The notes beneath the pieces were generated by a model that was given only the letters and a program-made list of their open reading frames with translations, searched no databases and had not been told where the DNA came from. 64,000 nt of DNA from IMG/VR virus record IMGVR_UViG_3300044977_000094, positions 1 to 64,000 of that record, one strand, 5' to 3'. Origin of the DNA: a virus. The number at the start of each line of letters is the position of its first letter. Position 1 is the first letter of the stretch. Of the stretch, positions 1 to 28,204 are shown piece by piece. Made by a program: the position numbers and the translations under genes.

Positions 1-8
1 GGGCGTGT

Positions 9-94
9 TGATGTGGTGTGCGCTCCGCCGCGCTTGAGTGATATGGAGTGCGCTGCCTATTGCATGAGTGATGTGGTCGCCGTACCATATCGAC
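9..94 (+). promoter_or_regulatory. Housekeeping-sigma promoter with overlapping operator-like repeats, upstream of a leaderless cro-like gene
   Basis: TTGCAT(60-65)-N17-TACCAT(83-88), ATG at 95; TGAT(A/G)TGG at 9, 39 and 69, plus reverse CCATATC at 85. Confidence 0.65.
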
Positions 95-349
95 ATGGAA
101 TCGACAGCCGATCGGCTGCGAGCCCGTCTTCGTGTTGTCCAAGCCCTGCCCCCGGTCCAGGAGCGCGCCCCACTGCGCGAACGTGCCGGGCTGTCCCGAG
201 CAGACCTCGCCGCCGCCATCGGCGTCACGGCGGGCGCGGTCTGGCTCTGGGAGAAGGGCAAGCGACAGCCGTCCGGGACGCTGCTGGAGAAGTACCTGGA
301 GGCACTGCGCCTCCTTGAAGAGACCAACCCGGCCCAGGAGGCGTCATGA
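95..349 (+). CDS. Cro/XRE-family helix-turn-helix regulator
   Basis: LRERAGLSRADLAAAIGVTAGAVWLWEKGKRQP HTH; ATGA overlap with the next gene. Confidence 0.85.
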   Translation: MESTADRLRARLRVVQALPPVQERAPLRERAGLSRADLAAAIGVTAGAVWLWEKGKRQPSGTLLEKYLEALRLLEETNPAQEAS

Positions 350-1161
350 ACGACCTGCGCGAGATCATGCCCTTCGATGTCGAAGGCGCGCCGATGCGCT
401 TCGGCATGACCGAGGACGGCACCCCGTTCGTTGCGGCCACCGACTTCGCCAAGGCAATGGGCCACCGCGACGCGGAGAAGGCGACGCGACTACTCGACGA
501 GGTCGAGAAGGGTACCCAGATTGTGGGTACCCCCGGCGGACCCCAGAAGCTCAACGTCATCTACGAGGACGGCATCTGGGAGCTGATCTTCCGCAGCAGC
601 CTGCCCGGTGCCAAGGCGATCAAGGCCCGCGTGAAGGCCATCCTGCGGGAGATCCGCGAGACCGGCCGCTACGAGGCCCCGCTGGACGATCCGCTCGCGG
701 AGATTGAACGGCAGACCCAGCTCACCGTGAGGGCCGTCGAACTGGCCCGCAAGGAACGCGCTGGCCGTGAGATCGCCGAGCAGCAGGTCCGCGAGCTGGA
801 GCCGGCCGCGCACTCCTGGGAGGTGCTGGCGTCGGCCGACGGCGACTACGCAGTCGCGGACGCTGCGAAGATCCTTTCCCGGGATCCGGCGATCAAGCTC
901 GGCCGGGACCGGCTGTTCACGCTGCTACGGGAGTCCGGCTGGGCCTACCGGCAAGGCGTTGATCGCAAGCACCGCGCGAAGCAGTACGCCGTCGACCACG
1001 GATGGCTCTCGGAGATCCCGCAGTCCCACTACCACCCGCGCACCGGCCAGTTGGAGCTCGACGCCCCGCAGGTCCGGGTGACCGTGAAGGGGCTGCACGC
1101 GCTGCACAAGTGCCTCGGGGGAGTCGAGCAGCTTCGCATTCCGCTCGGCAACGCTGCCTGA
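346..1161 (+). CDS. Phage antirepressor (BRO-N plus KilAC/ANT domain)
   Basis: PFVAATDFAKAMGH..TPGGPQ..IYEDGIWELIFRSSLP (BRO-N); YAVADAAKIL..GRDRLFTLLR..VTVKG (ANT). Confidence 0.88.
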   Translation: MNDLREIMPFDVEGAPMRFGMTEDGTPFVAATDFAKAMGHRDAEKATRLLDEVEKGTQIVGTPGGPQKLNVIYEDGIWELIFRSSLPGAKAIKARVKAILREIRETGRYEAPLDDPLAEIERQTQLTVRAVELARKERAGREIAEQQVRELEPAAHSWEVLASADGDYAVADAAKILSRDPAIKLGRDRLFTLLRESGWAYRQGVDRKHRAKQYAVDHGWLSEIPQSHYHPRTGQLELDAPQVRVTVKGLHALHKCLGGVEQLRIPLGNAA

Positions 1162-1200
1162 CTCCCACCCGCCCTCTGCTGATCGACGGAGACCGAGCAC

Positions 1201-2202
1201 GTGAGCTGGCAGGCAGTGGAGTGGGCGATGCGTGATGCTCCGATGCTCCTCACCGACAAAGGCAAGCCGGACACGACGGCCAGGCATGTCCTGGCGGCGC
1301 TTGCCGAGTTCGCTGAAACGGACGGCTCTGAGGCCAGGCCTGCGCTGATAACTCTCCAGCACCGTACCGGCTACGACCGGCGAACCATTCAGCGTGCCCT
1401 GCGGCGCTTGGAGGGCGGTGGCCTGGTCCGGGCTGAGGGGACGAAGTTCGACTGCACGATCTACCGGCTGGCGATGCACCTGATGCGGCCGGCCTCGGAC
1501 ATGGACGATCTGAAGGCGGAGGAGATGCGGCAGAAGGAGGGGGATGCCGAGCGTCAGCGTCGGTCGCGGGCGAAGCGTGTCACGCATGCAAACGACGTGA
1601 CTGTCACGGACGCAGAGTGCGTGACAGTACCGGATGTCACGGACGCAGACGACGTGAGTCACGCATTCTCCGTCCCGACGTCACGCACGCAGAATCCGGA
1701 TGTCACGGACGCAACGCCGCCCAATCCTTCCTTTGATCCCCCCAGGACCCTTCCTCTCTCTCCCGCCGCGGGTCGGGCAGCCGATGCGGCTCGCGCCGTC
1801 ACCGATGAGAGAGAGATCGATGCTTCGCCCGACAACAGCAACAACGACACGGCGAAGGTTGCCGAGGCGTGGTCGGCCGCACGCGGCCGGGGCCGTAACC
1901 CGGCAGCCGAGCAGCGGGTCCGGGAGTCGGCCGCCTTGTTGCTGTCGGTCGGCTGGTCGATCCCGGACGTGATCGCTCTCGCGGAGGACATGGGCGTGCG
2001 TCAGCCGTCTTTCACGGACCTGGCCAAGCACGAGCCGCACTGGCAGCGCCCGGTCGCCGGCGGCGTGGTGCCGCCGAGTCTGCCGCCGTGGTGCACCCGT
2101 TGCGGTGGCGGCTGGGACGCGGCCCGCACGAATCCTCGCTTCCGCAAGACCCCGGACGGGGCACCGTGCCCCGCCTGCCATCCCGACGCCATAGCCGCCT
2201 GA
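1201..2202 (+). CDS. Replication initiator 1 (N-terminal winged HTH, lambda O-like layout)
   Basis: MSWQAVEWA..ARHVLAALAEFA..TGYDRRTIQRALRRLE; internal direct repeats; C-terminal Cys motifs. Confidence 0.72.
   Translation: MSWQAVEWAMRDAPMLLTDKGKPDTTARHVLAALAEFAETDGSEARPALITLQHRTGYDRRTIQRALRRLEGGGLVRAEGTKFDCTIYRLAMHLMRPASDMDDLKAEEMRQKEGDAERQRRSRAKRVTHANDVTVTDAECVTVPDVTDADDVSHAFSVPTSRTQNPDVTDATPPNPSFDPPRTLPLSPAAGRAADAARAVTDEREIDASPDNSNNDTAKVAEAWSAARGRGRNPAAEQRVRESAALLLSVGWSIPDVIALAEDMGVRQPSFTDLAKHEPHWQRPVAGGVVPPSLPPWCTRCGGGWDAARTNPRFRKTPDGAPCPACHPDAIAA
1577..1715 (+). repeat. Iteron cluster (putative origin 1)
   Basis: TGTCACGGACGCA at 1602, 1635 and 1701, plus GTCACGCA variants and inverted CGTGAC copies. 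Confidence 0.7.
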
Positions 2203-2222
2203 CCCACACCCGAAGGAGCAGC

Positions 2223-2666
2223 ATGACCGCCGCCATCCGTTTCGCCACTACCTACGCTGTCCTGACCGCATCTCACGAGGTCGCGGACCACTGGGTCCAG
2301 GTCGACTCCCAGGCGACCGCCAAGGGCACACCGGGCCCGGTTGGGGCCAAGGCGTGCGCCAGGCACGTCGCCTCGTATAGCGCCACGCAAGGGCTCGCGC
2401 TGCTGGTCGCCGACCGGCTGCTCGGGTTGGGCCTGAGTCCGCGCCGGGCAGTTGCGGCGCTCGCCGTTTCCGCGGTCACGCACTACGTCGCCGACCGGCA
2501 GGGCGGTCACTGGCGCGACGAGCACCCCCGCGGGATCGTCCGGCTCGCTGCTGCGACCGGGCACGCGGGGTGGTTGAAGCGGGATCCGGGCAGCGGCTAT
2601 CTGATGGATCAGGCGTGGCACAAGGGGTGGATCGCCGTCGCCGCGATGGTGGCAGCCGGGGGCTGA
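2223..2666 (+). CDS. DUF3307-like membrane protein
   Basis: HEVADHWVQ, HYVADR and DQAWH motifs; hydrophobic helices; GAAGGAG RBS. Confidence 0.6.
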   Translation: MTAAIRFATTYAVLTASHEVADHWVQVDSQATAKGTPGPVGAKACARHVASYSATQGLALLVADRLLGLGLSPRRAVAALAVSAVTHYVADRQGGHWRDEHPRGIVRLAAATGHAGWLKRDPGSGYLMDQAWHKGWIAVAAMVAAGG

Positions 2667-2730
2667 TCCACCACCTGACCGCCCTCTGCTGCCCGGCCGG
2701 AAGGCCGGGCAGCCCAACCGAAGGAGCAGC

Positions 2731-3240
2731 ATGACTCTCACTCTCGCCCAGGTCGACGCGATCGCCGCCGAGGCCCACGCCGGCCAGTTGGACAAGATCG
2801 GCGTCCCGTACATCGAACACCCGCGCGCTGTCGCCGCCGGGCTCGCCCCGTTCGGGGTGGGCATGCAGATGGCCGGGCTGCTGCACGACGTGCTGGAGGA
2901 CACGGAGGTGACGGCGGAGCAGCTGGTCCGTGCGGGCGTGCCCTGGACCGTCGTGACGATCGTTCGGCGGGTCACTAACCGTCCCGGCGCCTCGTATGCG
3001 GCGATGCTCGACGGGATCTCCATGGAGTACTGCGCCTGCCTGGTGAAGATCAGCGACAACGCGCACAACAGCCACCCCGACCGGAGCGCCCAGCTTCCTG
3101 AGGACAAGCGGGCTCGGCTTGCCGCGAAGTACTCGCACGCTCGCAGCATCCTGTGGGCCGCCGTGCCCCGCGAGGACGTCGCCACCGTCCTGCGGATCGT
3201 CAACCCGAGCCTGCTCGGTGAGCTGGAGAACCTGAAGTGA
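2731..3240 (+). CDS. HD-domain phosphohydrolase (RelA/SpoT hydrolase or Mesh1-like)
   Basis: AHAGQ.DK.G.PYIEHP, LLHDVLEDT, LVKISDNAHN. Confidence 0.82.
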   Translation: MTLTLAQVDAIAAEAHAGQLDKIGVPYIEHPRAVAAGLAPFGVGMQMAGLLHDVLEDTEVTAEQLVRAGVPWTVVTIVRRVTNRPGASYAAMLDGISMEYCACLVKISDNAHNSHPDRSAQLPEDKRARLAAKYSHARSILWAAVPREDVATVLRIVNPSLLGELENLK

Positions 3241-3560
3241 GCATCCCCGAACCCACCCCCACCAACGACCGCGGCTTCCTGGCCTACGCGGGTGGCCCGA
3301 TCACCACCGACTACGGCCACGAGGTCAGCGTGTATGAGTCGTCGGCCGCCAGCGGGCCGCACGCCTGGCTGAAGATCAGCGACAGTCCCCGCGTCGACGG
3401 CCGCAACGCGCACCTGTCGCTGGCGCAGGCCATTACGATCCGCGCCGCCCTGGACCAGTTCATCGAGGGCGTGCCGGAGCGGTGGGATCGCGGTGCTGAG
3501 CTGCTGGACGAGGCCCGGCGTGAGGTCTTCGGCGATGCGGCTGCGAGCGAGGCCGACTGA
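3237..3560 (+). CDS. Hypothetical phage protein
   Basis: Coupled ORF (GTGA overlap), plausible composition. Confidence 0.65.
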   Translation: MSIPEPTPTNDRGFLAYAGGPITTDYGHEVSVYESSAASGPHAWLKISDSPRVDGRNAHLSLAQAITIRAALDQFIEGVPERWDRGAELLDEARREVFGDAAASEAD

Positions 3561-3829
3561 TGGTGATGCAGCCCCGCACCAGCCACCGCGTCTCTGGGCC
3601 CGTCCTGTGGGCGGCGCTGGACCGACGACGCACGGAGCTCGGCATCTCATGGCGTGAGGTTGCCCGGCAGACCGGCTGCACGACCGGGAGCCTGTTCACG
3701 CGCATGCAGCGCGACGACCTCGGTTTGCATGCCGACACCCTCGTGTCGCTGCTCGCGTGGATCGGCTATGGGGTGCCGCTGTACGGGCTGATCGAGAGGG
3801 TTGGGCGGGGCGACCGGGATACGGCCTGA
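3560..3829 (+). CDS. Small HTH DNA-binding protein
   Basis: ALDRRRTELGISWREVARQTG. Confidence 0.65.
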   Translation: MVMQPRTSHRVSGPVLWAALDRRRTELGISWREVARQTGCTTGSLFTRMQRDDLGLHADTLVSLLAWIGYGVPLYGLIERVGRGDRDTA

Positions 3830-3942
3830 CCTGCGCAAAGTCTCCACGTCGGCTTATGCCGTACGGGCCCTGGCGGGGCGTTAGAAGTGGGAGACTGGGA
3901 ACCACCATATTTGCGGATCAACTACCGTGAAAGGTAACCCTC

Positions 3943-4137
3943 ATGAGCACTGAACTCACCCCGCAGGAACGAGTCGACGCCGAAGCCCTCCTCGACCTCA
4001 TCGGCGACGACGAGCCGTGCGGCGAGAACTCCTGCCACTGCCACTGCACCGGCGGCCACGTATGCGGCTGCGACTGCTGGCGATGCGACCAGTGCCAGCA
4101 GACCGCCGACCACTGCCAGTGCGACGAGGAGGACTGA
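3943..4137 (+). CDS. Cys/His-rich mini-protein (metallothionein-like composition)
   Basis: 11 Cys in the C-terminal ~37 aa; AAAGG RBS. Confidence 0.6.
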   Translation: MSTELTPQERVDAEALLDLIGDDEPCGENSCHCHCTGGHVCGCDCWRCDQCQQTADHCQCDEED

Positions 4138-4139
4138 CC

Positions 4140-4313
4140 ATGCTCAACCTCGACCCGATCGACCGCATGCTGCTGGTCGACAGCCTGGAGATCGCCCTCG
4201 ACGGCGGCTGCGGCTTGTGCGACACCGAGCGGCTGCACCTGTGCGCCGGCTGCGGACTGTGCCGCTGCTATGACCACGACACCTGCTCGCGGCCCACGGA
4301 GACCCCGTCATGA
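4140..4313 (+). CDS. Small Cys-rich protein
   Basis: MLNLDPID..CGLC..CAGCGLCRC; GGAGG RBS. Confidence 0.55.
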   Translation: MLNLDPIDRMLLVDSLEIALDGGCGLCDTERLHLCAGCGLCRCYDHDTCSRPTETPS

Positions 4314-4792
4314 TCGGCTGTGCTGGTGACCCGCGCACCACCCTCACCCCCGGCGACCAGGCCGAGGTGGAACCCGAGTCGCTCGACGCCAAGGCTGAGC
4401 GTCAGTACCGCGTGCAGGCAGCCGAGCACGCCGACTGCCCGTTCTGCCAGATCGTTGCCGGGCTCGCGCCGGCGACGGTGGTCCGCGAGTGGCCGGACGC
4501 CTTGGCGTTCTTCCCGCTGCATCCGGTCGTTGACGGCCACACGCTGGTGATCCCCAAGCAGCACGTCGCCGACTTCGCGACAGATCCTGAGGCGTCGGCG
4601 GTGGCGAATCGCCGGATCGCCGAGCTGATGCGGTGGACCAATCGGCCCATGAACGTGATCACCTCGCGCGGCAGGGAAGCGACGCAGAGTGTGTTCCACG
4701 CCCACTGGCATTTGGTGCCCCGTGCGGAGAACGACGGGCTGGCGCTGCCCTGGTACAGCGGGAAGAGCAAGCGGAAGGATCACCATGCCTGA
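4310..4792 (+). CDS. HIT-family nucleotide hydrolase
   Basis: DCPFCQI, GHTLVIPK.H and QSVFHAHWHLVPR histidine triad. Confidence 0.9.
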   Translation: MIGCAGDPRTTLTPGDQAEVEPESLDAKAERQYRVQAAEHADCPFCQIVAGLAPATVVREWPDALAFFPLHPVVDGHTLVIPKQHVADFATDPEASAVANRRIAELMRWTNRPMNVITSRGREATQSVFHAHWHLVPRAENDGLALPWYSGKSKRKDHHA

Positions 4793-5219
4793 GTCGCCGG
4801 AGATCGCCGCGCTGGCCAAGCAGGCCCGCGACGGAATGGACGCCGACGAGCGGATCCTCATGGCCGTGTCCAACGGCCCGAACCGTCCCGAGAAGTGGAC
4901 TGCTGTCGAACGGTCGTACAGCGAGATCCGGCGCTGGCACGTGGATGGCCAGCCCTCCAACGTGGCGAGCGGGATGTTCGCTGGGGATGCCGCCCATATC
5001 GCCCGCCACGACCCGCACCGGATCCTGGCCGACGTGGCGGCGCGGCGGACCCTGCTGGACGATGCGCTCGCGTGGAGGCACGGCCTTGTCCGCTGGGACC
5101 ACGACCGTGTCCTTGCCTGCGATTCGGTGCTCGGCAAGCCCTGCGACTGCGGCCGTGACGCGCGTGTCCGGGCCGTGCTGACCGCACTCGCCACGCCCTA
5201 CCAGGAGGAAGCCTCATGA
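4785..5219 (+). CDS. DUF6221-like phage protein
   Basis: HIARHDPHRILADVAARRTLL..LTALATPY. Confidence 0.65.
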   Translation: MPESPEIAALAKQARDGMDADERILMAVSNGPNRPEKWTAVERSYSEIRRWHVDGQPSNVASGMFAGDAAHIARHDPHRILADVAARRTLLDDALAWRHGLVRWDHDRVLACDSVLGKPCDCGRDARVRAVLTALATPYQEEAS

Positions 5220-5530
5220 GCCACGTCACTGACCTCGTGTTCATCACCCCCAACGCCGACTGGGTCGACTGCGAGACCCGCTGCCTGCGATTCGAGGCCA
5301 GCTTCCTCGCCGCACACGGCCACGAGATCGTCGCGACCCAGGGCCAGGGGAAAGCCATGTCCACGGCGGTGTACGTCGCCGGCGTGAACTGGATCAACCA
5401 GGAGTGGATCGAGTCCGTCCTGGCCGACGACTGGCCCAAGGGCACCGTGCTGTGGCTCGACATCGAGGGCCTGATGGACCAGCCCAGCGAACGCGTCGTG
5501 CACCAGCTCGGCCCGAAGGGCCTGCGGTGA
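5216..5530 (+). CDS. Hypothetical protein
   Basis: Coupled ORF with RBS. Confidence 0.6.
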   Translation: MSHVTDLVFITPNADWVDCETRCLRFEASFLAAHGHEIVATQGQGKAMSTAVYVAGVNWINQEWIESVLADDWPKGTVLWLDIEGLMDQPSERVVHQLGPKGLR

Positions 5531-5669
5531 CTCACCACCGGGCCCTGTATCGCACTGGCCGTCACGGTTGCTGGGCGTCGTGCTGCTGCGGCTGGGTCGG
5601 CCAGCGGCGTTGGACCACGCCGGTCGGGGCGCACCTGGAGTTCGGGCGGCACCTGATCAAGGAGGCGCG

Positions 5670-5879
5670 ATGACCCCGCTGTTGACTGCTGCTGCAACGC
5701 TGGCCGCCGTCCTGGTCGGCTACGGCCTGCTGGCCCTGCGGTTCTGGCTCGCCGAGCGTGCTGACGACCGCGCCTGGCAACAGGCATGGGACGCCGTCGC
5801 CCAGCGCTACGACCTGTGGACCGACACCGAAGGCCGCCAGTGGGCCACCGAGAAGCCCGGATGGAGGGCGACCCCGTGA
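5670..5879 (+). CDS. Small membrane protein
   Basis: MTPLLTAAATLAAVLVGYGLLAL hydrophobic segment; AAGGAGG RBS. Confidence 0.55.
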   Translation: MTPLLTAAATLAAVLVGYGLLALRFWLAERADDRAWQQAWDAVAQRYDLWTDTEGRQWATEKPGWRATP

Positions 5880-6042
5880 CCCCGTTCGAGCAGGCTGCCG
5901 CGGACATAGCCTCCCGCTTCGCGCACGGCCACGACGAGCTGGTTACCGGCTGCGCCCTGTGCAACGCCGAGTACGACGCCGTGGTGGCACTCAGCCACGA
6001 GCACTGCGAATGCCCCAGCTGCCCGGACAAGGAGGGGCCAGA

Positions 6043-6327
6043 GTGACCGACGACGTGGAGATGAGGGGTGTTCCCGAGGGTTACTCGGAGATCCGCCTCG
6101 GGATGTCGAACTTCGATCACACGATCGACGACGGCTTCGAGGAGCGGCTGCGGGCCGAGCAGGTCTGGGGGCGTCATGCGGCGATGAACTTCAACGGCCG
6201 CGTGTGGTTCGAGGGCGGCATGTTCCACGAGCAGGTCTGGCGCTACGGCACGCCGAGGGCCAGCTACTCGGCATCGACCCTTGCGGGGCTCATGGAGATG
6301 GTCAGCGACAGATACGGATGGGAGTAG
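6043..6327 (+). CDS. Hypothetical protein
   Basis: GTG start after AAGGAGG; globular composition. Confidence 0.6.
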   Translation: MTDDVEMRGVPEGYSEIRLGMSNFDHTIDDGFEERLRAEQVWGRHAAMNFNGRVWFEGGMFHEQVWRYGTPRASYSASTLAGLMEMVSDRYGWE

Positions 6328-6329
6328 CC

Positions 6330-6968
6330 GTGACCGACGACCCTGATGTGATCACCTGCGGTCCGATGCCGGGGCGCCCAGGCGAGGTGCTGCTGCACCT
6401 GCCGTACGTGGCCTACCTCGACACGCAGGCCGGACCGGTAGAGGTGGGACTGGACCGGGAGCAGCTGCCGGAACTCCTCGCCGCAGTCCGGGCCGCGCTC
6501 GGCGCGCCGGAGTTTCCGCTGCCGATCCGCCCGGACGGCACGCACGCCTACGTGTCCACGTACTGCGTGCACGGTGACCACGCGGCCTGCCGCAGAACGT
6601 GCAAGACCTGCGCCAGCAGCTGCCTCTGCCCCTGCGGCCACCCGAAGCCCGAACCGTACTGCGGCTACGACTACCACGACATGTCCGAAGAGGAGCGCTG
6701 CGGCATCGCCTGCATGTGCCAGCCCCATGCAGTCGGCGAAGCCTGCAACTGCCCCGAGGGCTGCCCGACGCACAACCACGGTGGCCCGGACGTCGTCAAA
6801 GGGTCGATCGGCGGACGAGCGACCGACCCGGAGGTGACCGACGACGACCGATGCCCGGTGTGCGGGTGCGTCGTCGGGCCGGACTGCGAGGCATGCGAAC
6901 GGGACTGCCGCGCTCCCGTGCCGGCGCCGGTTGCCGGGGTGGCAACGAGCGAGGAGCGGTCATGCTGA
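6330..6968 (+). CDS. Cys-rich multi-zinc-finger-like protein
   Basis: About 20 Cys in CxC/CxxC clusters. Confidence 0.55.
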   Translation: MTDDPDVITCGPMPGRPGEVLLHLPYVAYLDTQAGPVEVGLDREQLPELLAAVRAALGAPEFPLPIRPDGTHAYVSTYCVHGDHAACRRTCKTCASSCLCPCGHPKPEPYCGYDYHDMSEEERCGIACMCQPHAVGEACNCPEGCPTHNHGGPDVVKGSIGGRATDPEVTDDDRCPVCGCVVGPDCEACERDCRAPVPAPVAGVATSEERSC

Positions 6969-7198
6969 GCCGACTGCGGAGCGAGTGGCAAGGCTGGCGG
7001 ATCCGCAAGCGCGGGGATATCGACCTTGACATGGATGATCCCTATGGGCGCATGTACATGACCCGGTCACAGGTTGCCGACCTGCGCGTAGCGGTGGCCC
7101 AGTCCGGCGTCGACACCCCTGGCTGCGACTGCGGCCACGACGGCATGGGCGTGTCCTGGCATGGCGGAGAGTGCACGTGGAAGGCGGGGCGGCGGTGA
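6962..7198 (+). CDS. Hypothetical protein
   Basis: RBS GAGGAG; in operon. Confidence 0.5.
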   Translation: MLSRLRSEWQGWRIRKRGDIDLDMDDPYGRMYMTRSQVADLRVAVAQSGVDTPGCDCGHDGMGVSWHGGECTWKAGRR

Positions 7199-7383
7199 GC
7201 GGGCGGAGCATCGACGAGCCGCTGGAGACGGTGACGCTACCCACGACCGACCTAGATCACCTGCTGGCCGTGGCGACCCTGTACCTGGAGTCGTTCGGGC
7301 CGGAGGAGAAGTTCAGCCTGGGCGGCCTGATGTCCTTGCAGGAGATTGAGGCTGTGGTGGAGCGCTATGGGCGCCGCTACTGA
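7195..7383 (+). CDS. Hypothetical protein
   Basis: GTGA-coupled ORF. Confidence 0.5.
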   Translation: MSGRSIDEPLETVTLPTTDLDHLLAVATLYLESFGPEEKFSLGGLMSLQEIEAVVERYGRRY

Positions 7384-7552
7384 CCCGCGGACGGCTCCGG
7401 CGGCCAAGCCTCGCCTGGTGCGCTGTCGCCGCTGTCACCGCCCGCTGACGGATCCTGACGCGCGTGCCCGTGAGATTGGCGACGAGTGCGCGGAGGCTGA
7501 GTTCCGGGCCCGCCTGGGTGGGATTGAGCAGGAGCCGCTACCGGGCCTGTGA
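7367..7552 (+). CDS. DUF6011-like zinc-binding protein
   Basis: CRRCHRPLTDPDARAREIGDEC. Confidence 0.7.
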   Translation: MGAATDPRTAPAAKPRLVRCRRCHRPLTDPDARAREIGDECAEAEFRARLGGIEQEPLPGL

Positions 7553-7587
7553 CCTGCACTGGTACGGAGTCCTCCGTAGTGGCATCT

Positions 7588-7603
7588 TCGAACACATGTC
7601 CGA
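7588..7603. promoter_or_regulatory. LexA (SOS) box-like operator overlapping a start codon
   Basis: TCGAAC-ACAT-GTCCGA, one mismatch to actinobacterial TCGAAC-N4-GTTCGA. Confidence 0.65.
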
Positions 7604-7970
7604 ACCGCCCGAGAGCTGGCCCCCCGGTGTCCCCACCCCGGACACCCCCGGCTGGACCCGGCACGCCCTCGAATACATCGCCTCCACCCAGCCCCAGCAC
7701 ACGTGGCGCCACACGGTTCTCTCCCTACGGCCGTGGCTCCTCGCCGCGGACTCCTGCCTCACCCTGCGCCGCGACTTGGAAGACCTGCGCGCCTCCTACC
7801 GGCACGCCCGCACCCACTACGAGTCGTTCCTCGGGCCGGCTGGGCTAGCGGACTACCTAGCGCTGCACACCCAGCGGGCGGCGCGGCTGGAGCAGATCCT
7901 GAAGCACACGGTGGCGCTGGAGGAGGCGTTCGCGAAGGAAGCCAGCCGACGCGGGACGGACGGGGGCTGA
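7596..7970 (+). CDS. Hypothetical protein, putatively SOS-regulated
   Basis: ATG lies inside the LexA-like box; WPPGVPTP..helical protein. Confidence 0.6.
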   Translation: MSEPPESWPPGVPTPDTPGWTRHALEYIASTQPQHTWRHTVLSLRPWLLAADSCLTLRRDLEDLRASYRHARTHYESFLGPAGLADYLALHTQRAARLEQILKHTVALEEAFAKEASRRGTDGG

Positions 7971-7988
7971 CCTGCGGTGGCGCGGGAC

Positions 7989-8010
7989 TGTCAGTGGCGG
8001 GTCGTAGCGT
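7989..8010 (+). promoter_or_regulatory. PafBC/RecA-NDp-like DNA-damage promoter
   Basis: TGTCAG-N10-TAGCGT matches TGTCRG-N10-TAnnnT. Confidence 0.55.
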
Positions 8011-8138
8011 CAATGGTGCGCACCCCGGCCGACAGGCAGTCGACCCTGGAACCTGCGCGCAGGCGGCGGCCGGACCGATGCACGGGAACGGCCGCCGCTT
8101 CCCATTTCGTCGCTGAGCGTGACCGAGGAGCGGGGAAG

Positions 8139-8177
8139 TGCAGCGAAAGTTACACTCTGGATGTAACTTTCGCTGCA
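8139..8177. repeat. Perfect 16-bp inverted repeat with 7-bp spacer at the convergent junction (terminator or recombination site)
   Basis: TGCAGCGAAAGTTACA-CTCTGGA-TGTAACTTTCGCTGCA. Confidence 0.85.
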
Positions 8178-8180
8178 AGA

Positions 8181-8651
8181 TCACGAGATGGGCAGTAGCT
8201 CAGCGTCACCTTTCACCTCCCATCCCCATGCCTTGGCGAGCCCCAGCACCGTTCGGCATGGATGCTCGGCGGCCCACATCCCGGAGAACCCCAGTTGCGG
8301 CTCGGAGCACGTGCGGCACTCCGTCTCGTCGCGCTCGCGCGCCATATCGCCGGCAGCGTGCTCGGCCAGGATCTCCCGCTCCGCCGCAACCCGGCACAGG
8401 ACCGCGCGCGGGCTGTTCGACTGGATGAGCAGCGCCTCGGCCAGATGCGCCTCCGGCTCGTGCTCATCGACATCGATGTGGGTCACGGGGCCTCGCTCGC
8501 CCTCGATGACGTACTCGACGACGGAGCGATGGTCGGCCGCCCGTGGGCTGATCAGCCACCAGCCCTGCCCGTCGCTCGCGGTTGTGGCGCATCGCTCTGC
8601 CTCGGCGTGAGCTGCGAGCAGGAACGCCACCGCAGGATGCAGGTCACTCAT
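8181..8651 (-). CDS. DUF6221-like phage protein
   Basis: SPRAVLCRVAAEREILAEH..C..C..PCRTVLGLAKAW. Confidence 0.7.
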   Translation of the reverse strand: MSDLHPAVAFLLAAHAEAERCATTASDGQGWWLISPRAADHRSVVEYVIEGERGPVTHIDVDEHEPEAHLAEALLIQSNSPRAVLCRVAAEREILAEHAAGDMARERDETECRTCSEPQLGFSGMWAAEHPCRTVLGLAKAWGWEVKGDAELLPIS

Positions 8652-8820
8652 CGTCGTCCTCCTGGTTCTCGGGGTCGCAGCAGCCGTCCAGGCTCCGGCA
8701 GTCGCCGTAGGTGTCCGCGCACGGGCCGATGCACGACTCCTCACCACACGGGCCGTAGATCCTCCCGTTCAGGCACGCGAGGTCCGGGCCGTGGCCACAC
8801 GGGCAGGGCAGGTCAGGCAT
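8644..8820 (-). CDS. 58-aa Cys-rich mini-protein (absent from the ORF track)
   Basis: Hand translation MPDLPCPCGHGPDLACLNGRIYGPCGEESCIGPCADTYGDCRSLDGCCDPENQEDDDE; GGAGGAG RBS; overlaps both neighbours. Confidence 0.65.
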   Translation of the reverse strand: MPDLPCPCGHGPDLACLNGRIYGPCGEESCIGPCADTYGDCRSLDGCCDPENQEDDDE

Positions 8821-9346
8821 GCTGCTCCTCCAGGATTTCGCGGCCTTCGCAGCCGCAGGGCTCGAACCGCCAGTGCCGCTCGGTGCTCAACGTCGTCTCC
8901 TCGCCGTAGAAGCGGCCGACGACGCCCTCCAACTCAACGCGGTAGTCGAAGGTCCACCACGGCGGACCGGACCGTGCACCGCACAGCGGGCAGGCCATAT
9001 CTCGCCATGGCCACCGCGACAGGCGCAGCCGCAGCAGGTCCAGCGGGTGAATGATCGGCATCGCCATCGGCAGGTAGTCCCCGACCCGATCCGCCGTGTG
9101 GTCGCCGTCGTGGCAGCACCACAGCCCGCACTGCTCGTTGCCGACCACCCAGCAGCAGTAGTGCTGCTCGCCGTCGAACAGCCGCATGTGCTCGGCCTTC
9201 GCCGCCTGCGTCTTGGCCTGCCCCTCGGCCCGGACCGCTTCGGTGAACGCCCGCTCCTGCCGGATCATCCGGCGATGCTCGCGGACCAGCCATCCGCCGA
9301 GCAGGACGGCGTAGAGGATCAGGGCGATACCCACCACGGTGTTCAC
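8813..9346 (-). CDS. Membrane-anchored Cys-containing hypothetical protein
   Basis: N-terminal TM VVGIALILYAVLLGGWLV. Confidence 0.55.
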   Translation of the reverse strand: MNTVVGIALILYAVLLGGWLVREHRRMIRQERAFTEAVRAEGQAKTQAAKAEHMRLFDGEQHYCCWVVGNEQCGLWCCHDGDHTADRVGDYLPMAMPIIHPLDLLRLRLSRWPWRDMACPLCGARSGPPWWTFDYRVELEGVVGRFYGEETTLSTERHWRFEPCGCEGREILEEQHA

Positions 9347-9556
9347 TGTGGCTCCTGGTAGTGGTCGATGTCGGGCAGGTCGGTCACGTGGTCCCAGCGG
9401 CTGGGTGTCCACTCGGGCTCGCAGTCCGGGATGGGCTGGTCGGCGGCGCACCAGCGGCACAGCTCCGTCGGCACGCCTTGGGCATCCCGGGCCAGGTACT
9501 CGCGCGGCGTGGGGGTCTGGCACGGCCAGCACAGGACCATGCTCGATATCGGCTGC

Positions 9557-14965: not shown

Positions 14966-14990
14966 TTGACTTCAGCGATACTCTGAACCC

Positions 14991-16499: not shown

Positions 16500-16576
16500 G
16501 GAGGGCTCCAGGCTGGTGCGGTGGGGTGGGCTGGTGCGGCCGACCTCGTAGGGCGGCGAACTTACTAGTCGGTCAG

Positions 16577-19030: not shown

Positions 19031-19540
19031 TCAGAACGGGGGCTCGTCCGAGGTGCCGCCCTGGCGCCCCTGCGGCGCACCCCAACCCCCGCCGGACTGC
19101 TGGCCGCCACTCGCCCACGGATCGGCCTGCGGCCCCTGCTGGCCGACGCCCTGCCGCTGCTGGCCCTGGCCGCCCGACCGGTCAGCCCTCGTGACCTTGG
19201 CCGTAGCGAACTTGAGGCTGACCGCGACGTCCTCGGCTTCGATCTCGAAGACGGTGCGCTTTTGCCCGTCCTTCTCGTAGCTGCGGGACTTGAGCGCACC
19301 GGTCACGACGAGCCGCATCCCCTTCAGGACACTCTCGGCGACCTGCTCTGCCTGCTGCCGCCACACGTTGACGGTCAGGTAGAGGGGCTCGGCGTCCTTC
19401 CAGGTGCTGGTGGTCTTGTCGTAGGTCCGTGCCGTGGAGGCCATGCGGAAGTTCGCGACCGCAGCGCCCGACGGCGTGAACCGCAACTGGGGATCTTCGA
19501 CGGCATTGCCGACAAGGGTGATCAAGGTTTCGCCTGCCAT
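19031..19540 (-). CDS. ssb: Single-stranded DNA-binding protein
   Basis: [28 protein letters not shown]; C-terminal DEPPF. Confidence 0.96.
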
Positions 19541-19549
19541 GACGGGCTC

Positions 19550-20296
19550 CTATGCGGTGAGTTCGAGGTACAGATGCGGGAAGAGCGTGCTGAGCCGGTT
19601 GCGGACCTGGTTGGCGCTCATGCCGAGCCGCCGGGCGATCTGCTCGGGCTGCTGGCCGGCGGAGGCGAGGAGCCACATCTCGGTGACCCGCTCGGCGGCG
19701 AGCTCGTCGCGGTTCAGTTCGGCCTCCGTGACGTCCGTCTCCGGGACTGCGGCGGGGTCGTCGATGTCGTCACCCCAGGCCAGTGGGCCGTGGAAGCCGC
19801 GCTGCGCGGCGGTGGTGCGGGATCGCTTCGACGGTCCGGGGATGGTCGACCACTGCCGGTACAGCTCAGCGACTGCTGTGGCGTAGCGGCGCCGGATCGT
19901 GGGGTAGCGGCCTGCCAGCAAGTTGGAGACGAACTCCCGCGACACCCTGAGTTCCCGGGCGATCGCGATGGCGGTGTGGCCGATGGCAATGAGCGCCTGC
20001 ATCCGTCGGCGGCTTCCGGTGGCGTCGATCGTGAGGTAGTCCGGGATCAGACCCGGGTGCATGCGTGTCGCCGCGAGCTTCGCCGCACTGTCGGGCCTGA
20101 TCTGGGCCCGCTTGCCGTGGAGGAGCTGGCCGACTCCTTCTTCGCTGTAGCCGGATGCGGCCGCGATCTGCCCGCAGGTGTAGCCGTCGGCAACCCACTG
20201 GGCGACGAGCTGCCGGAACGGTTCGGCGTCGACCAGGAGGAGGCCTTCGCGGGCTGTGCGGAGCCGCCATTCCTTCATGTACCGGGGGGTGCTCAC
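19550..20296 (-). CDS. Multi-HTH DNA-binding protein
   Basis: Several HTH-like segments; TGSRRRMQALIAIG; PLAWGDDIDDP. Confidence 0.65.
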   Translation of the reverse strand: MSTPRYMKEWRLRTAREGLLLVDAEPFRQLVAQWVADGYTCGQIAAASGYSEEGVGQLLHGKRAQIRPDSAAKLAATRMHPGLIPDYLTIDATGSRRRMQALIAIGHTAIAIARELRVSREFVSNLLAGRYPTIRRRYATAVAELYRQWSTIPGPSKRSRTTAAQRGFHGPLAWGDDIDDPAAVPETDVTEAELNRDELAAERVTEMWLLASAGQQPEQIARRLGMSANQVRNRLSTLFPHLYLELTA

Positions 20297-21411: not shown

Positions 21412-21705
21412 TCATCGGGGACCTGCCTTCGCGGCCTCATAGCAGCCGTAGCAGTCGTCGACGCTGCCGTTCTCGCAGCAGTGCTGGTCGAGGGGCGTGC
21501 CGGTGTCGGCGTGGAGCCGGTAGTCGTCGAGGAGGTTGTCGATGACGTCCCACTGCGTGTCGTGGTGCTCGCTGAACCGGTCGCGGCGACTCTTGAGCCA
21601 CTGCTCAACCAGGTCGCCGCGCTGAGGGCGCGCCGCCGGGTGGTACGACGGCCCGGAGTGCGTCAGGGCGTCGAGGAACAGGCTCCAGCGGCTGGTGGTC
21701 ATCAC
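21412..21705 (-). CDS. Hypothetical protein
   Basis: PQRGD.VEQWLK..DNLLDDYRLHADTGTPL. Confidence 0.6.
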   Translation of the reverse strand: MMTTSRWSLFLDALTHSGPSYHPAARPQRGDLVEQWLKSRRDRFSEHHDTQWDVIDNLLDDYRLHADTGTPLDQHCCENGSVDDCYGCYEAAKAGPR

Positions 21706-22100
21706 GCGACCTGCTTCCGCGTGGCGATGTCCTTGGCGGCAGCGGCACGCAGTGCCTCTACACCGCCTGGTCGCAGGCTGCCCTTGGGCGCCTTCCGCAC
21801 CGACGGCCCAGTCTTCGGCAGCTTCTTCGAGCCGCTGACCAGGTCCTTGAAGCCCTGCCCGGGACGGAACCGCGGCACAGTGGTCTTCTTGACCTTGACG
21901 CGCTCGCCGGTCTGCGGGTTGCGGGCGAACCGGGCCGGGCGGTCGACCTTCTCGAACGTCCCGAAGCCGGTGACGGAGACGCGCTCCCCGGCGGTGACGG
22001 CGCGGACGATGCTGTCGAGGACGGCGTCCACGGCCTCGGCGGCGACGCGGCGGGAGCCGAGCTGCCCGGCGACGGCGTCGACCAGTTGGGCCTTGTTCAC
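21702..22100 (-). CDS. hup: HU-family nucleoid-associated protein
   Basis: MNKAQLV..GFGTFE..ARNPQTGE..PRFRPG. Confidence 0.95.
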   Translation of the reverse strand: MNKAQLVDAVAGQLGSRRVAAEAVDAVLDSIVRAVTAGERVSVTGFGTFEKVDRPARFARNPQTGERVKVKKTTVPRFRPGQGFKDLVSGSKKLPKTGPSVRKAPKGSLRPGGVEALRAAAAKDIATRKQVA

Positions 22101-24510: not shown

Positions 24511-25272
24511 TCAGGTGCCCGACTGCTGGGCGGCGGCGCGTTCCTTGCCGATCCGCACGACCATCGCGCCGATCTGCTCCTCGTCCCCGGTCTCATTGGT
24601 CACCAAAGCGGCCACCTGCCGGGTCTGCTGGAGCTCGTGATGGATCTGGCGCAGACGACCCACACTCGTACGCGGATTCGTGATCTCGTCCAGATAGCTC
24701 GCCGCCGCCCGGACCGGAGCCTCACCCCGCTCCAGGCGCTGGGAATCCGGATCGGGATCACTTGTCGGGGTCAGCCCCAAAGTCAGCAAGAGCGTTCGCA
24801 GCGCCACCGACTGCGCCTTCGTCGTGCTCTTATCCGCCGTATCCAGCGCCTCACCGCGGGTCTGTACCGTGAGCTTGTCGCCCTTCGGGCCGAGGATCTC
24901 CCACGTCGTCAAGACAGTGCACTCGCGCATCTTGCTGCCCGACTTGGTGGTCTTCTCGCCGTACTCCGCCTCCACCTTCACCGGCAGCACCGACACACCG
25001 TGCTTGATCGTCACCGGCCCGAAGACGTTGACGACAGTGTCGACGCCGCGGAAGTTGAAGCGCGTCCCGGACTGGTTGTACAGCTCGCCCTTGCCGATCG
25101 CCCGAATGTCGCGACGCACCCGCAGCCAAGCGAGGTGCACCGGCACCATGTCCGGGTCGCCATCCCCCGTCTCGTAGTTACTCAGGTCAATGCCGACCGC
25201 AGCCGGCTCCTCATACAGCGGCTCGCCCTGGTCACGCCCGGCCAGTGCAGCGGCTGTCTCAGCCAGTCCCAT
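24511..25272 (-). CDS. ERF-family single-strand annealing recombinase
   Basis: FNFRGVD..GEALDTADKSTTKAQSVALR. Confidence 0.85.
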   Translation of the reverse strand: MGLAETAAALAGRDQGEPLYEEPAAVGIDLSNYETGDGDPDMVPVHLAWLRVRRDIRAIGKGELYNQSGTRFNFRGVDTVVNVFGPVTIKHGVSVLPVKVEAEYGEKTTKSGSKMRECTVLTTWEILGPKGDKLTVQTRGEALDTADKSTTKAQSVALRTLLLTLGLTPTSDPDPDSQRLERGEAPVRAAASYLDEITNPRTSVGRLRQIHHELQQTRQVAALVTNETGDEEQIGAMVVRIGKERAAAQQSGT

Positions 25273-26318
25273 CAGGACTCCTCCCTCGTCGGCTTCAGCC
25301 GGTACGCCTTGTCGATGGACAGCTGCTCGAACGGCTTACGGGTGACGCACTCGCGGTACGCCTCCGGCCACCGCTCGGCCAACCGTTCGTAGTCCGTCGT
25401 CGCCCGCCCCGGCCGCGCCTCCAGCGAGTACGCCGGGTCGTTGTTCAGGAAGCAGTGCCGTGCTGTGCCCAGCAGGCGAAGCAGCTCGGCTTGGGCCAGC
25501 TCCTTCTTCTTGCGGGCCGCAGCCTCGGCGAGCCGGTTCTCCTCGTAGTTGAAGAGCGCCGCCAGAACGTCGTCGTTGTCGTCCAGGTGCACCACGCCCT
25601 CGGGTTCCGGGTTGAGGCGCCGGTACAGCGAGATCTCACGTGCACCATGCTCGGACGGCGGTGGCACAACTCGGGGAATGACGTAGGTGTCCCAGAAGCG
25701 GCGGCAGGCGGCCACGATGTCCCGCATCGTCGTCTCGTAATCCGCGCGGCGGATCACGCCCTGCCGGTACTCGTTGCCGCCGATCAGGACCGCGTAGTGG
25801 ACGTGGTCGTAGCCGGTGACGGCGAGCTGGAACAGGATCTGCGCGAGCACGTCGTCCGGGGCCCCGCCGTGCCACCGGCCACCCTTGAACGCCGACCGGC
25901 ACTTGATTTCCAGGGCGCACGTCTCGCACCTGGTTTCGGGCAGCGGGCACTCGGTGATGCGCCGGTCGAGCGTGGTCATCAGCACCGGGTCGTCCATGTG
26001 TGCGACCAGGCCAACCCGCTGGACGACGGACCGGTTCCGGCGCGCCCATTCGCGGGCGATGGGTTCCTCCAGCAGGGTGCCCCAGTGGGCGGCGTCGCCG
26101 GCCTGGTCATCGAGTTGGCCTGTTTTGTCGTAGTAGACGTGCCGCGGGCTGCCGAAGTCTTCGACGCCGAGGATCGCGGGCGCGTCGGATGCCCCGATGC
26201 CGCGCTTGCGGGCGGCGAGCCATGCGGAGCGCTCGGCGGAGGCAGGGAGGACGAGTCGGGCGGTCGGGGTGACGCGGCGGCCGGGGGAGGACGGCAGGGG
26301 AGGGGCGATCGTCGTCAC
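25272..26318 (-). CDS. YqaJ/lambda-exonuclease family recombination nuclease
   Basis: WLAARKRGIGASD..G..LE..LEIK..Q..QLAVTG. Confidence 0.9.
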   Translation of the reverse strand: MTTIAPPLPSSPGRRVTPTARLVLPASAERSAWLAARKRGIGASDAPAILGVEDFGSPRHVYYDKTGQLDDQAGDAAHWGTLLEEPIAREWARRNRSVVQRVGLVAHMDDPVLMTTLDRRITECPLPETRCETCALEIKCRSAFKGGRWHGGAPDDVLAQILFQLAVTGYDHVHYAVLIGGNEYRQGVIRRADYETTMRDIVAACRRFWDTYVIPRVVPPPSEHGAREISLYRRLNPEPEGVVHLDDNDDVLAALFNYEENRLAEAAARKKKELAQAELLRLLGTARHCFLNNDPAYSLEARPGRATTDYERLAERWPEAYRECVTRKPFEQLSIDKAYRLKPTREES

Positions 26319-26758
26319 CGGGCACCGCCTGCCTGCTGTGCCTTGCGCTCGATCCAGGCGCGCGCCGCGTCCTCGGTCTCGAACTGCGAGGACGACCTGC
26401 GACGGCCGTCGTGCCGGTACCGGACCCGCCACGTGCCTGCCTTCGTCGGCAGCGCCCGGACCTGGGTGATCCCGTCCTCCGGGCCGACCAGGGCCTTCAG
26501 CCGGGCGACCTCGGCCAGGAGCTGCGGCACTGCTGTGCGGGCGTCGAGGATGAACTCCAGGTCCGCCTCAGCCTGCTCGCCGACACCCGTGTCGAACGTG
26601 CCGACGCCCTGCATGTGCTCGCCGACCCAGTTGGCGACGAAGTCCGGCGGGTACGAGCTCGTCCCAGCCTCGCGAGCCGTATGCCACGGACCTGCGGTCG
26701 CCGCAGCCTCCAGGGCCGTGATCTCGGCGAGGCGGTCCTCGCTCAGCGGGGCCGTCAT
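26315..26758 (-). CDS. Ea22-like protein with an integrase-arm-like C-terminal domain
   Basis: AATAGPW..FILDARTAVPQLLAEV; WRVRYRHDGRRRSSSQFETEDAARAW. Confidence 0.6.
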   Translation of the reverse strand: MTAPLSEDRLAEITALEAAATAGPWHTAREAGTSSYPPDFVANWVGEHMQGVGTFDTGVGEQAEADLEFILDARTAVPQLLAEVARLKALVGPEDGITQVRALPTKAGTWRVRYRHDGRRRSSSQFETEDAARAWIERKAQQAGGAR

Positions 26759-26988: not shown

Positions 26989-27198
26989 GGCGGTCCTTCC
27001 TCTCCTGCGCCCACAGCTCGACCGCAGCCACGCAGTCCAGGCACAGCCACATCTCGGACGGCTCGTGGAACTCGGTTTCGCACTCGTCGAAGACCTCCCG
27101 GCACTCGTCGCACTCGCGACGGAGGCAGGCGGCGTGCCGGGTCTGGACAGCGACGGCGTCGGCGCTCGGGGCCGGTGGGGCGAGCAGCAGGTCGGCGG

Positions 27199-27639
27199 TC
27201 ACGACGCGACCGCCATCTGAGCCTCAACCGCCAGCCGCACCAGGCACGCCGACACCTCCAGGGCAGTCCGCGACGACACGTCGGTGAAGTCCGCCAAGTG
27301 CTCGATGTAGTCCGGGCGGCCGTCCGTCCACGGGGCCAGACCCCGCATGTGCAGCGACGCGAACTCCAGCGCCGCAGCCACCACCGGCACGTCCGGCACA
27401 TCCTCCGGCCGCTCGGGGTCCTCGCCGCACGCGATCCGAATCGCCCCGACCATGTCCACCGGCCGGAACTGCGGGTCACTCGCATGCAGGACACCGTGCG
27501 CGTCCGGGACCGCCGGCGGCGCCACGAACTGGCCCTTCGCCAGGCCGTTCCGCTCGATCACATCCGCGGCGACACGGAAGACCGTCGCCAGGTCGATGGT
27601 GGTTCTCGGTTCAGGTGCCAAGATGGTCACGTCGACCAC
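27199..27639 (-). CDS. DUF6197-like protein
   Basis: AADVIERNGL.KG..D.VGAIRIA. Confidence 0.55.
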   Translation of the reverse strand: MVDVTILAPEPRTTIDLATVFRVAADVIERNGLAKGQFVAPPAVPDAHGVLHASDPQFRPVDMVGAIRIACGEDPERPEDVPDVPVVAAALEFASLHMRGLAPWTDGRPDYIEHLADFTDVSSRTALEVSACLVRLAVEAQMAVAS

Positions 27640-27720
27640 CCTTCTCTTGAGATGAATTGGTGCGGGTGGGAGGCAGGCCGTCGGTTCGGGGGTGCGACCC
27701 CGGGCTGGCGGCCGTTGTTT

Positions 27721-27966
27721 TCAGGCCGCGACGCGCTTTGCCTTGACCTCGCACCGCTCGCTGTACTCGCGGATGTGGCGCGGCAGGAACTTGTACGAGC
27801 CGGCGATGACCGTGTAGCCGATCTCGTTGCGCTTGACGAGGCCGAACAGGTAGTTCGGGGAGACGCCCAGCAGCTTGGCGGTCTGTGCGCGGCTGAAGTG
27901 TTGGAGCTCGGCGGCGCTCTCCGCGTCCGGGCCCGGGGGGCTCTTCTTCGTGCGAGGCGCGGTCAC
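27721..27966 (-). CDS. Excisionase-like HTH protein
   Basis: FSRAQTAKLLGVS..YLFGLVK..I..G.YKF; immediately after cro. Confidence 0.75.
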   Translation of the reverse strand: MTAPRTKKSPPGPDAESAAELQHFSRAQTAKLLGVSPNYLFGLVKRNEIGYTVIAGSYKFLPRHIREYSERCEVKAKRVAA

Positions 27967-28169
27967 GACTGTTCCTCTCGATTGATGGCGGCGACGGGCA
28001 CATCCATGGCCCTGGCTATGGCGCGGAGCTGGTCTTCCGTCGCCCCGCGCTCTCCGCGTTCGAGGCGGGAGAGGAAGCTCCGGTCTAGTCCGGTGCGCTG
28101 TTCTACCACGCGAATGCCTAGTTTCAGTGCCGTTCGCAGGGCCCTGATGGCCGTTCCGTTCGGTGTCAC
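27963..28169 (-). CDS. Cro-like HTH regulator
   Basis: IRALR..TGLDRSFLSRLERG; divergent from repressor. Confidence 0.85.
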   Translation of the reverse strand: MTPNGTAIRALRTALKLGIRVVEQRTGLDRSFLSRLERGERGATEDQLRAIARAMDVPVAAINREEQS

Positions 28170-28175
28170 AGAGCA

Positions 28176-28204
28176 AATGTAGGCTCACGCGATGCCGCGC
28201 GCAA
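28176..28204 (-). promoter_or_regulatory. Early (cro) promoter, leaderless
   Basis: TTGCGC-N17-TACATT, GTG start 6 nt downstream. Confidence 0.65.

Follow-up and report, generated by a model that had tools for sequence, protein, structure and literature searches.

The first 64,000 bp (hereafter the window) of IMG/VR record IMGVR_UViG_3300044977_000094, a single virus record of 175,260 bp with a G+C content of 69%, carry two convergent early operons, each with its own switch and its own replication initiator gene. Judged from its genes, the element is probably a temperate siphovirus-type phage of a soil actinomycete that also carries a Streptomyces-type double-stranded DNA conjugation block (TraB/FtsK, DUF2637/Spd, GntR). 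We give a probability of about one half to the reading that it is a conjugative temperate phage resembling pZL12 and P1, with a CI/Cro-controlled lytic replicon and an independently switched second replicon for a non-lytic episomal or conjugative phase. A preliminary description of this DNA had proposed, as one of its options, a single phage with a dual replicon and a dual switch. That proposal is supported: the arrangement occurs in both phage genomes joined in the record (units 1 and 2), the junction between the arms is conserved in relatives, and the genes of the plus arm are under purifying selection (dN/dS 0.17-0.38). IMG/VR classes the record as linear and CheckV rates it 100% complete. 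Since lists of open reading frames are noisy at this G+C content, genes were called with a codon-position G+C model. They lie on the plus strand from 95 to 7970 and on the minus strand from 28169 down to 8181; the lysis and virion genes, also on the minus strand, run past 64 kb. Scans of the region for Rfam families and tRNAs were empty.

The plus arm opens with a switch, an antirepressor-type gene and an initiator gene.

1-94, plus strand: promoter/operator unit, with three GTGATnnGG-type boxes at 8, 38 and 68 (spacing about 30 nt) and a promoter (TTGCAT 60-65, TACCAT 83-88)
95-349, plus strand: leaderless cro-like XRE helix-turn-helix (HTH) gene, 84 aa (Pfam HTH_3, 3e-10; HTH_31)
346-1161, plus strand: Bro-N + ANT/KilAC antirepressor-type protein, 271 aa
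1201-2202, plus strand: HTH_36 replication initiator, 333 aa
1573-1729, no strand assigned: candidate plus-arm origin inside the initiator gene, with six direct and two inverted GTCACG iterons at a spacing of about 22 nt

These features agree with the preliminary description, which had read here a leaderless cro-like gene behind TTGCAT-N17-TACCAT (the ATG follows TACCAT by 6 nt), a BRO antirepressor and an initiator with GTCACG iterons. A scan with the E. coli promoter consensus calls the promoter of neither arm, both being weak matches to that consensus; the putative plus-arm promoter is supported by its exact conservation in relatives. The cro-like protein is 81% identical in amino acids to the product of the same-position gene in the relatives L015 and L016 (dN/dS 0.29), and the Bro-N/ANT protein is 85% identical to its L015 homologue (dN/dS 0.17).

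The 333-aa initiator matches HTH_36 (1.8e-6) and the PHROG 'replication initiation / O-like' families (E 4e-11). Its AlphaFold (AF2) model consists of an N-terminal winged helix (three helices and a beta-hairpin), a long helix, a disordered linker, a helical C-domain and a Cys4 tail, and a fold search with this model returned generic winged-helix matches only. Eight GTCACG/CGTGAC hexamers are packed into 130 nt of the gene (1579-1707), whereas bins of 180 nt across the window average 0.19 and none of the others exceeds four. They are in frame, are read as Val-Thr within repeated (D)VT peptides, and fall in the segment that AlphaFold predicts to be the disordered linker between the winged-helix N-domain and the helical C-domain. 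In the linker 50% of the VT dipeptides are written exactly GTCACG, compared with 11% in the genes of the record. At least four GTCACG are present in 33 of 36 homologues, most of which have five or six GTCACG and two or three CGTGAC. Such a codon-pair preference, kept across 36 homologues, reveals a constraint at the DNA level inside a coding sequence. Iterons in a linker inside the initiator gene are the ori-lambda arrangement, and autonomous replication is predicted. The plus-arm initiator is like lambda O in its N-terminal DNA-binding domain, its iterons in the coding sequence of the linker, its C-terminal partner domain and its place in an early operon beside helicase functions. It is unlike lambda O in that there are two modules per genome, that no P-type loader adjoins the plus-arm copy, and that Pfam Phage_rep_O (PF04492) matches neither initiator, both of which match PHROG O-like families instead.

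The family of the plus-arm initiator is also found as the sole initiator, in the main operon, of 33 IMG/VR prophage loci and of the Streptomyces phage TurkishDelight (93.6 kb), whose gp71 is 57% identical to it over the N-domain. The GTCACG iterons are kept in TurkishDelight and in these prophages (L019-L051). There the initiator gene lies downstream of homologues of the window's minus-arm genes (cro, exonuclease, ERF, multi-HTH) and is followed by DnaB or a zinc-finger partner. As the sole initiator of a main early operon, this family is a normal phage initiator and not a plasmid RepA. TurkishDelight and the prophages differ from the element described here in having a single initiator and a single rightward early arm, with no convergent second arm. 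A further homologue sits beside GntR and DUF2637 genes in a Streptomyces plasmid.

The minus arm has a switch and an initiator of its own.

28395-28898, plus strand: CI-type repressor, 167 aa, divergent from cro
28169-27963, minus strand: leaderless cro, 68 aa, behind TTGCGC (28204-28199) and TACATT (28181-28176)
27721-27966, minus strand: HTH_17 (xis-like)
25272-26432, minus strand: YqaJ exonuclease
24511-25272, minus strand: ERF
24427-23705, minus strand: Bro-N gene
19550-20296, minus strand: multi-HTH protein
19031-19540, minus strand: SSB
18965-18069, minus strand: O-like/DnaD-like initiator, 298 aa, with TGCTTCG repeats
16759-18069, minus strand: DnaB-family helicase, 436 aa, directly downstream of the initiator and the sole helicase of unit 1

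Here too the earlier reading, a leaderless cro behind TTGCGC and TACATT, a BRO protein, and a different initiator with TGCTT iterons and a helicase, was correct. The 298-aa protein matches O-like, DnaD-like and replisome-organiser PHROGs (E 2e-22 to 1e-18) and has no detectable sequence similarity to the plus-arm initiator. The TGCTTCG repeats within its gene, at 18448-18522 and 18737-18764, number six compared with a mean of 0.16 per 330 nt; with their 11-nt spacing and inverted copies, in a comparatively A+T-rich stretch, they mark a candidate origin. Calling both modules complete, as had been done, goes too far for the plus arm, where the initiator and its candidate origin are accompanied by neither helicase nor loader, SSB or recombinase.

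From this layout we propose the following mechanism. Each unit of about 87 kb would contain two lambda-O-style replicons, with each initiator gene holding its own iterons. The minus-arm replicon, about 9.5 kb down the CI/Cro-controlled early operon and accompanied by DnaB, SSB, exonuclease and ERF, would be the lytic one; it is taken as lytic because it lies in that operon with recombination and helicase genes. The plus-arm replicon lies 1.1 kb behind a separate leaderless promoter, which has a divergent HTH gene opposite it and is overlapped by an array of direct GTGATnnGG boxes. Both operons end at hairpins in the gap between them. The plus arm would fire while CI silences the minus arm. After excision, the plus-arm replicon might provide non-lytic replication, episomal and/or for TraB-mediated transfer, by analogy with the Rep of actinomycete integrative and conjugative elements (AICEs) and the RepA of P1 and pZL12. 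Bro-N/ANT, being co-transcribed, could tie the plus-arm switch to CI and so offer a second route of induction. Since there is one DnaB per unit, the initiator that has no helicase beside it presumably uses that DnaB or the host's.

The two arms converge on a gap of 210 nt (7971-8180) that contains a hairpin at 8061-8099 and a perfect 16-bp hairpin at 8139-8177. The 16-bp stem is terminator-like and very stable on both strands (z -5.7 and -6.5). The junction recurs with orthologous neighbours in independent metagenome contigs from JGI, ENA and NCBI. On the plus side the neighbour in relatives is a DUF6011 orthologue (74-78% identity); on the minus side there are a DUF6221 gene (41-64%), the Cys-rich mini-protein (95%) and orthologues of the genes at 8813, 9343, 10220, 12562 and 14499. 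Orthologous neighbours across the junction indicate that it is ancestral to the lineage. A misassembly at about 8.1 kb had been named among the things that could overturn the preliminary description; the same junction and flanking genes are found in other assemblies, and an assembly seam at this place is ruled out by the conserved junction in independent contigs. The suggestion of two prophages adjoining at about 8.1 kb likewise fails on the conserved junction, although the record does hold two phage genomes, with their borders elsewhere.

The gap and its surroundings hold two further motifs. At 7989-8010 on the plus strand there is a RecA-NDp-like motif, TGTCRGTG-N8-TAnnnT (the RecA-independent, PafBC-type DNA-damage promoter), which occurs once in 175 kb; it lies upstream of a hairpin with a U-rich tail and is a candidate for a damage-induced short transcript. 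Each unit also has, close to where its arms converge, a site that resembles the actinobacterial SOS box (TCGAAC-N4-GTTCGA) with one mismatch; these sites are at 7588 and at record position 96499, and the site at 7588 may be due to chance because it is inside a coding frame.

The relatives were reached through homologues of the plus-arm initiator, found by an alignment-based scan, and comprise four long metagenome contigs, of 94 kb (ERZ926358 k127_167239), 110 kb (Ga0311371_10000381), 123 kb and 147 kb, along with several fragments. Pattern scans of viral and genome contigs with the junction protein (8813-9346) and with the initiator alone found no relatives, the divergent HTH protein and Bro/ANT, looked up as exact sequences, occurred in no further contigs, and at the nucleotide level next to nothing in the phage and plasmid collections matched either arm. 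The gene order in the relatives is TraB, helper genes, DUF2637 (Spd), small genes, GntR, a divergent HTH gene of 180-220 aa, the XRE cro-like gene, Bro-N/ANT (in most), the HTH_36 initiator and often a DnaB_C helicase. The conjugation block TraB/Spd/GntR always precedes the plus-arm switch, and the order from tra and spd to the HTH_36 initiator is kept in L011, L015-L017 and L052-L053. The plus arm of the relatives is 16-19 kb long and then meets the minus arm. In L015 (12962-18984), L052 (2542-8564) and L053 (2630-8652) it includes an RNA-repair set of T4-type RNA ligase, PNKP/HAD, RlaP and endonuclease VII, none of which is present in the shorter plus arm of the window.

Comparison of the record with itself revealed two diverged syntenic units of about 86 and 89 kb arranged head to tail. 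Their shared proteins are 40-95% identical and their shared DNA 70-91% identical. The relatives of the portal protein belong to phages and Streptomyces plasmids of 81-93 kb, so that one unit corresponds to one capsid-sized genome. The integrase is of the tyrosine type in unit 1 and of the serine type in unit 2; phage genes flank both, which means that the units are shown in non-integrated gene order. In both units a plus arm converges on a minus arm and there are two O-like initiators, with non-orthologous heads of the plus arm. That of unit 1 consists of the cro-like gene, Bro/ANT and the HTH_36 initiator; that of unit 2 consists of a divergent XRE gene, a xis-like HTH_17 gene, a different O-like initiator and DnaB, without Bro/ANT. 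The two plus-arm initiators have only a C-terminal LPPWC...PCxACHPD motif in common. That one plus-arm replicon has replaced another at an unchanged position is an argument for a functional role of this position. There is exactly one DnaB-family helicase per unit, in the minus arm of unit 1 and in the plus arm of unit 2 (record 85874-87214). DnaB is in the plus arm also in the relatives L015 and L053, and a single phage helicase apparently serves both initiators. Among the exact repeats between the units the longest measures 137 nt (10599-10735 and record 100169-100305), and a second one of 82 nt is found at 5356-5437 and record 94771-94852. Both repeats belong to blocks close to the convergence point in which identity rises to about 91%, identity elsewhere being 70-80%, which points to a recent exchange between the genomes or a possible chimera point. 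The head-to-tail pair may be a genuine cointegrate or a product of chimeric assembly. If it were chimeric at the 137-nt repeat, the plus arm and the minus-arm replication genes of the window would belong to different molecules, each of which would still have one plus-arm and one minus-arm initiator.

The first 95 nt of the record and its last 97 nt (175164-175260) are two copies of a promoter/operator unit of about 96 nt. They are 82% identical, share an exact core of 31 nt and carry the promoter and three GTGATnnGG boxes each, six boxes in total. Both ends of the record coincide exactly with borders of this unit, which L015 and L016 carry once. Exact-pattern scans for the end-to-start junction of the record and for the right-end copy had no matches. 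The record may be circular with a duplicated promoter, or linear and ending on a repeated unit. The preliminary description had pointed to the DNA left of base 1 as a place for a second repressor, an integrase or partition genes. Upstream of the right-end copy, at the far end of the record, there is indeed a second regulator, a divergent HTH gene of 187 aa with 53% identity to the one found ahead of the cro-like gene in L015 and L016. Each unit also has an integrase. A partition system is not seen, as no PF01656 or PF13614 match to ParA was found across 175 kb. One unit has a gene with ParB_N only (335 aa, record 171213-172220); it has no ParA partner, lies between the tra genes of unit 2 and the plus-arm switch, and adjoins a repressor-like gene of 177 aa. 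Taken together, the Bro-N + ANT protein, the divergent HTH gene and the six-box operator-like array may form a putative secondary immunity region of the P22 immI type; unit 2 has no ANT gene.

The reading of a conjugative temperate phage with a second, non-lytic replicon draws support from the two unrelated initiators with their significant internal repeat arrays, the presence of two initiators in either unit, the gene order conserved in relatives, the wide use of the plus-arm initiator family with its iterons in prophages, the purifying selection, the plasmid homologue of the initiator and the precedents of pZL12 and P1. Over an induction operon it is favoured by the constant link of the plus arm to the tra genes and by the head of the unit 2 plus arm, where the xis-like gene, initiator and DnaB stand without an antirepressor. 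Several points weigh against it. The 22 kb of minus arm covered in one relative did not extend to replication genes, so that a second, minus-arm initiator in the single-unit relatives is presumed. The on or off state assigned to each arm is inferred. Co-transcription of an antirepressor with the second initiator would be expected of an induction operon no less than of a replicon for quiet maintenance, and the rest of the plus arm is made up of ordinary-looking early accessory genes (HD and HIT here, RNA repair in relatives). With no ParA and an integrase in each unit, a stable plasmid prophage in the style of pZL12 or P1, maintained by partition, is unlikely and was rejected. Only 8 of about 250 called proteins match between pZL12 and the record, mostly at 27-64% identity, with about five proteins detectably shared and one weak nucleotide match, so that the two are distant kin.

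The alternative that survives best, though we consider it rather unlikely, is that both modules are lytic, the plus arm being an immI-like antirepressor operon of the P22, P1 or N15 type that sets off induction by way of Bro/ANT and supplies an auxiliary origin, so that two origins about 17 kb apart serve one cycle. Bro-N + ANT as the second gene of the plus arm, the arm's own operator array and divergent HTH gene, the typical early accessory or anti-defence genes in its distal part, the role of its initiator family as the normal lytic initiator of other prophages and the lack of ParA all fit this alternative. It leaves the constant tra/spd/GntR neighbourhood unexplained, however, and two unrelated initiators in one lytic cycle would be unusual. 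Moreover, the unit 2 plus arm is without Bro/ANT and yet keeps an initiator behind a xis-like HTH_17 gene.

An assembly artefact, in which the plus arm and the minus-arm module of the window come from two co-occurring phages joined, for example, at the 137-nt repeat 10599/100169, is improbable. It would account for a record that consists of two related genomes in tandem, is classed as linear by IMG/VR, ends exactly on a 96-nt unit that is single-copy in relatives, shares a 137-nt exact repeat between its units and exceeds the approximately 81-93 kb packaged by its capsid relatives. On the other hand, positions 1-10598 are contiguous and the same arm junction is present in other assemblies, either possible monomer keeps one plus-arm and one minus-arm initiator, and there is no exact repeat of at least 24 nt at the seam at about 80.8 kb.

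We have similarly little confidence that the tra and plus-arm block is a separate AICE-like or satellite element within the phage, able to leave alone and with a replicon that serves only itself. Its content (TraB, Spd, GntR, a regulator and an initiator) is like that of an AICE or plasmid backbone, and the initiator has a homologue in a Streptomyces plasmid backbone. But the block has no integrase of its own, does not change its position between the two units or in any relative seen, and contains distal plus-arm genes with orthologues across the phage relatives; it is not flanked by direct repeats of at least 13 nt, and a discrete inserted element was rejected on this ground. A phage-satellite cointegrate, as entertained in the preliminary description, is not supported, given the same lack of flanking repeats and the conservation of the fusion in relatives. 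Finally, that one initiator is a functionless leftover of mosaic recombination is very improbable: actinophage genomes are mosaic and the plus-arm replicon differs between the units, but purifying selection acts on the genes of the plus arm, its iterons have stayed intact and conserved, and an initiator is kept at the plus-arm position in both units and in relatives.

The reading of a conjugative temperate phage with two replicons can be set against known systems. The closest is the Streptomyces plasmid-phage pZL12/phiZL12 (90,435 bp; Zhong et al. 2010, J Bacteriol 192:3747). Accounts in PMC3583192 and PMC4487206 give it a replication locus, a transfer locus and a cycle as plasmid and lytic phage. 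By annotation, pZL12 is like one unit of the record in its size of about 90 kb, its tailed-phage structural operon, its FtsK/TraB-type transfer locus and its GntR gene, and like the record in having a separate plus-strand arm that converges on a long minus-strand early arm; the record likewise joins a virion gene set and a TraB-type transfer locus on one replicon. Unlike the record, in which ParA is missing and CI has an integrase beside it in each unit, pZL12 encodes ParA/ParB and exists as a plasmid. PHROG scans found no O-like match among the replication (plus-arm) genes of pZL12.

P1 has a plasmid replicon, repA with oriR, and a lytic one, repL with oriL, and a tripartite immunity in which the antirepressor operon lies away from the main repressor. 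The plasmid state depends on repA, lytic growth on repL (PMC9603915). The element described here resembles it in carrying two unrelated replicons under different control in one genome together with a distant antirepressor operon. Two distinct initiator and iteron sets under two promoters are seen in the record, and a division of labour between them would complete the parallel. The families, however, are unrelated, and P1 has ParAB and never integrates, whereas this element has two lambdoid initiators with internal origins, is integrative and carries TraB genes. AICEs of the pSAM2 and SLP1 type provide a third comparison. Their parts list of int, xis-like, FtsK-like tra, spd and GntR (KorSA-like) genes is present in full in the record, and their replicon is thought to be active after excision; but their Rep is RepSA (rolling circle) or RepAM and they have no virion genes, whereas the initiators of the record are O-like or DnaD-like.

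The remaining features of the two arms, and the integration, virion and transfer genes, are as follows.

2223-7970, plus strand: rest of the plus arm, with a membrane protein, HD and several unknown genes
3943-4137, plus strand: Cys-rich mini-protein with the motif PCGENSC
4310-4792, plus strand: HIT gene
4785-5219, plus strand: DUF6221 gene
7346-7552, plus strand: DUF6011 mini-protein, present in the plus arm only
8181-8651, minus strand: DUF6221
8644-8820, minus strand: Cys mini-protein with the motif PCGEESC
8181-16745, minus strand: distal minus arm, with XRE genes at 11258-11794 and 15886-16224 and otherwise also unknown genes
21702-22100, minus strand: HU
27199-27639, minus strand: DUF6197
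29312-30550, plus strand: tyrosine integrase, 412 aa
34.6-66 kb, minus strand: portal, capsid and tail genes of the lysis/virion block
73669-75933 of the same record: FtsK_SpoIIIE (TraB-type), with DUF2637 (Spd) and GntR genes

A DUF6221 gene, near the inner end, and a PCGExSC mini-protein thus occur in each arm; that both arms carry them had been noted in the preliminary description. Between the integrase and the lysis genes, at 33003-33866 on the plus strand and opposite to its neighbours, there is a regulator with an XRE-HTH and a DUF5753 domain (E 6e-50).

pZL12, the single actinomycete plasmid-phage to have been studied, has been called a singleton without close relatives (PMC7157519). 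The element described here is likely a variant of the known plasmid-phage theme, integrative and TraB-bearing, with two lambdoid replicons, and a lineage rather than a singleton. More tentatively, these may be integrative temperate phages of acid-soil actinomycetes that spread both as virions and by TraB conjugation, with a dedicated second lambdoid replicon active under CI and an antirepressor that couples the switches; on that view the 175-kb pair could have formed naturally, as a cointegrate between episomes resident in one cell. Gene flow by phage-plasmids and gene flow by conjugative elements are mostly regarded as distinct. In this lineage, known from several soil metagenomes, each genome combines virion and TraB genes with an integrase and with two replicons that are switched independently. 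Its in-frame GTCACG iterons are a clean case of DNA-level constraint in a coding sequence, and its two compact initiator and origin cassettes are potential, mutually compatible replicon parts for actinomycete genetics. If the second replicon does serve a non-lytic, transferable state, such a phage would be able to spread between mycelia without killing them and with a host range independent of receptors.

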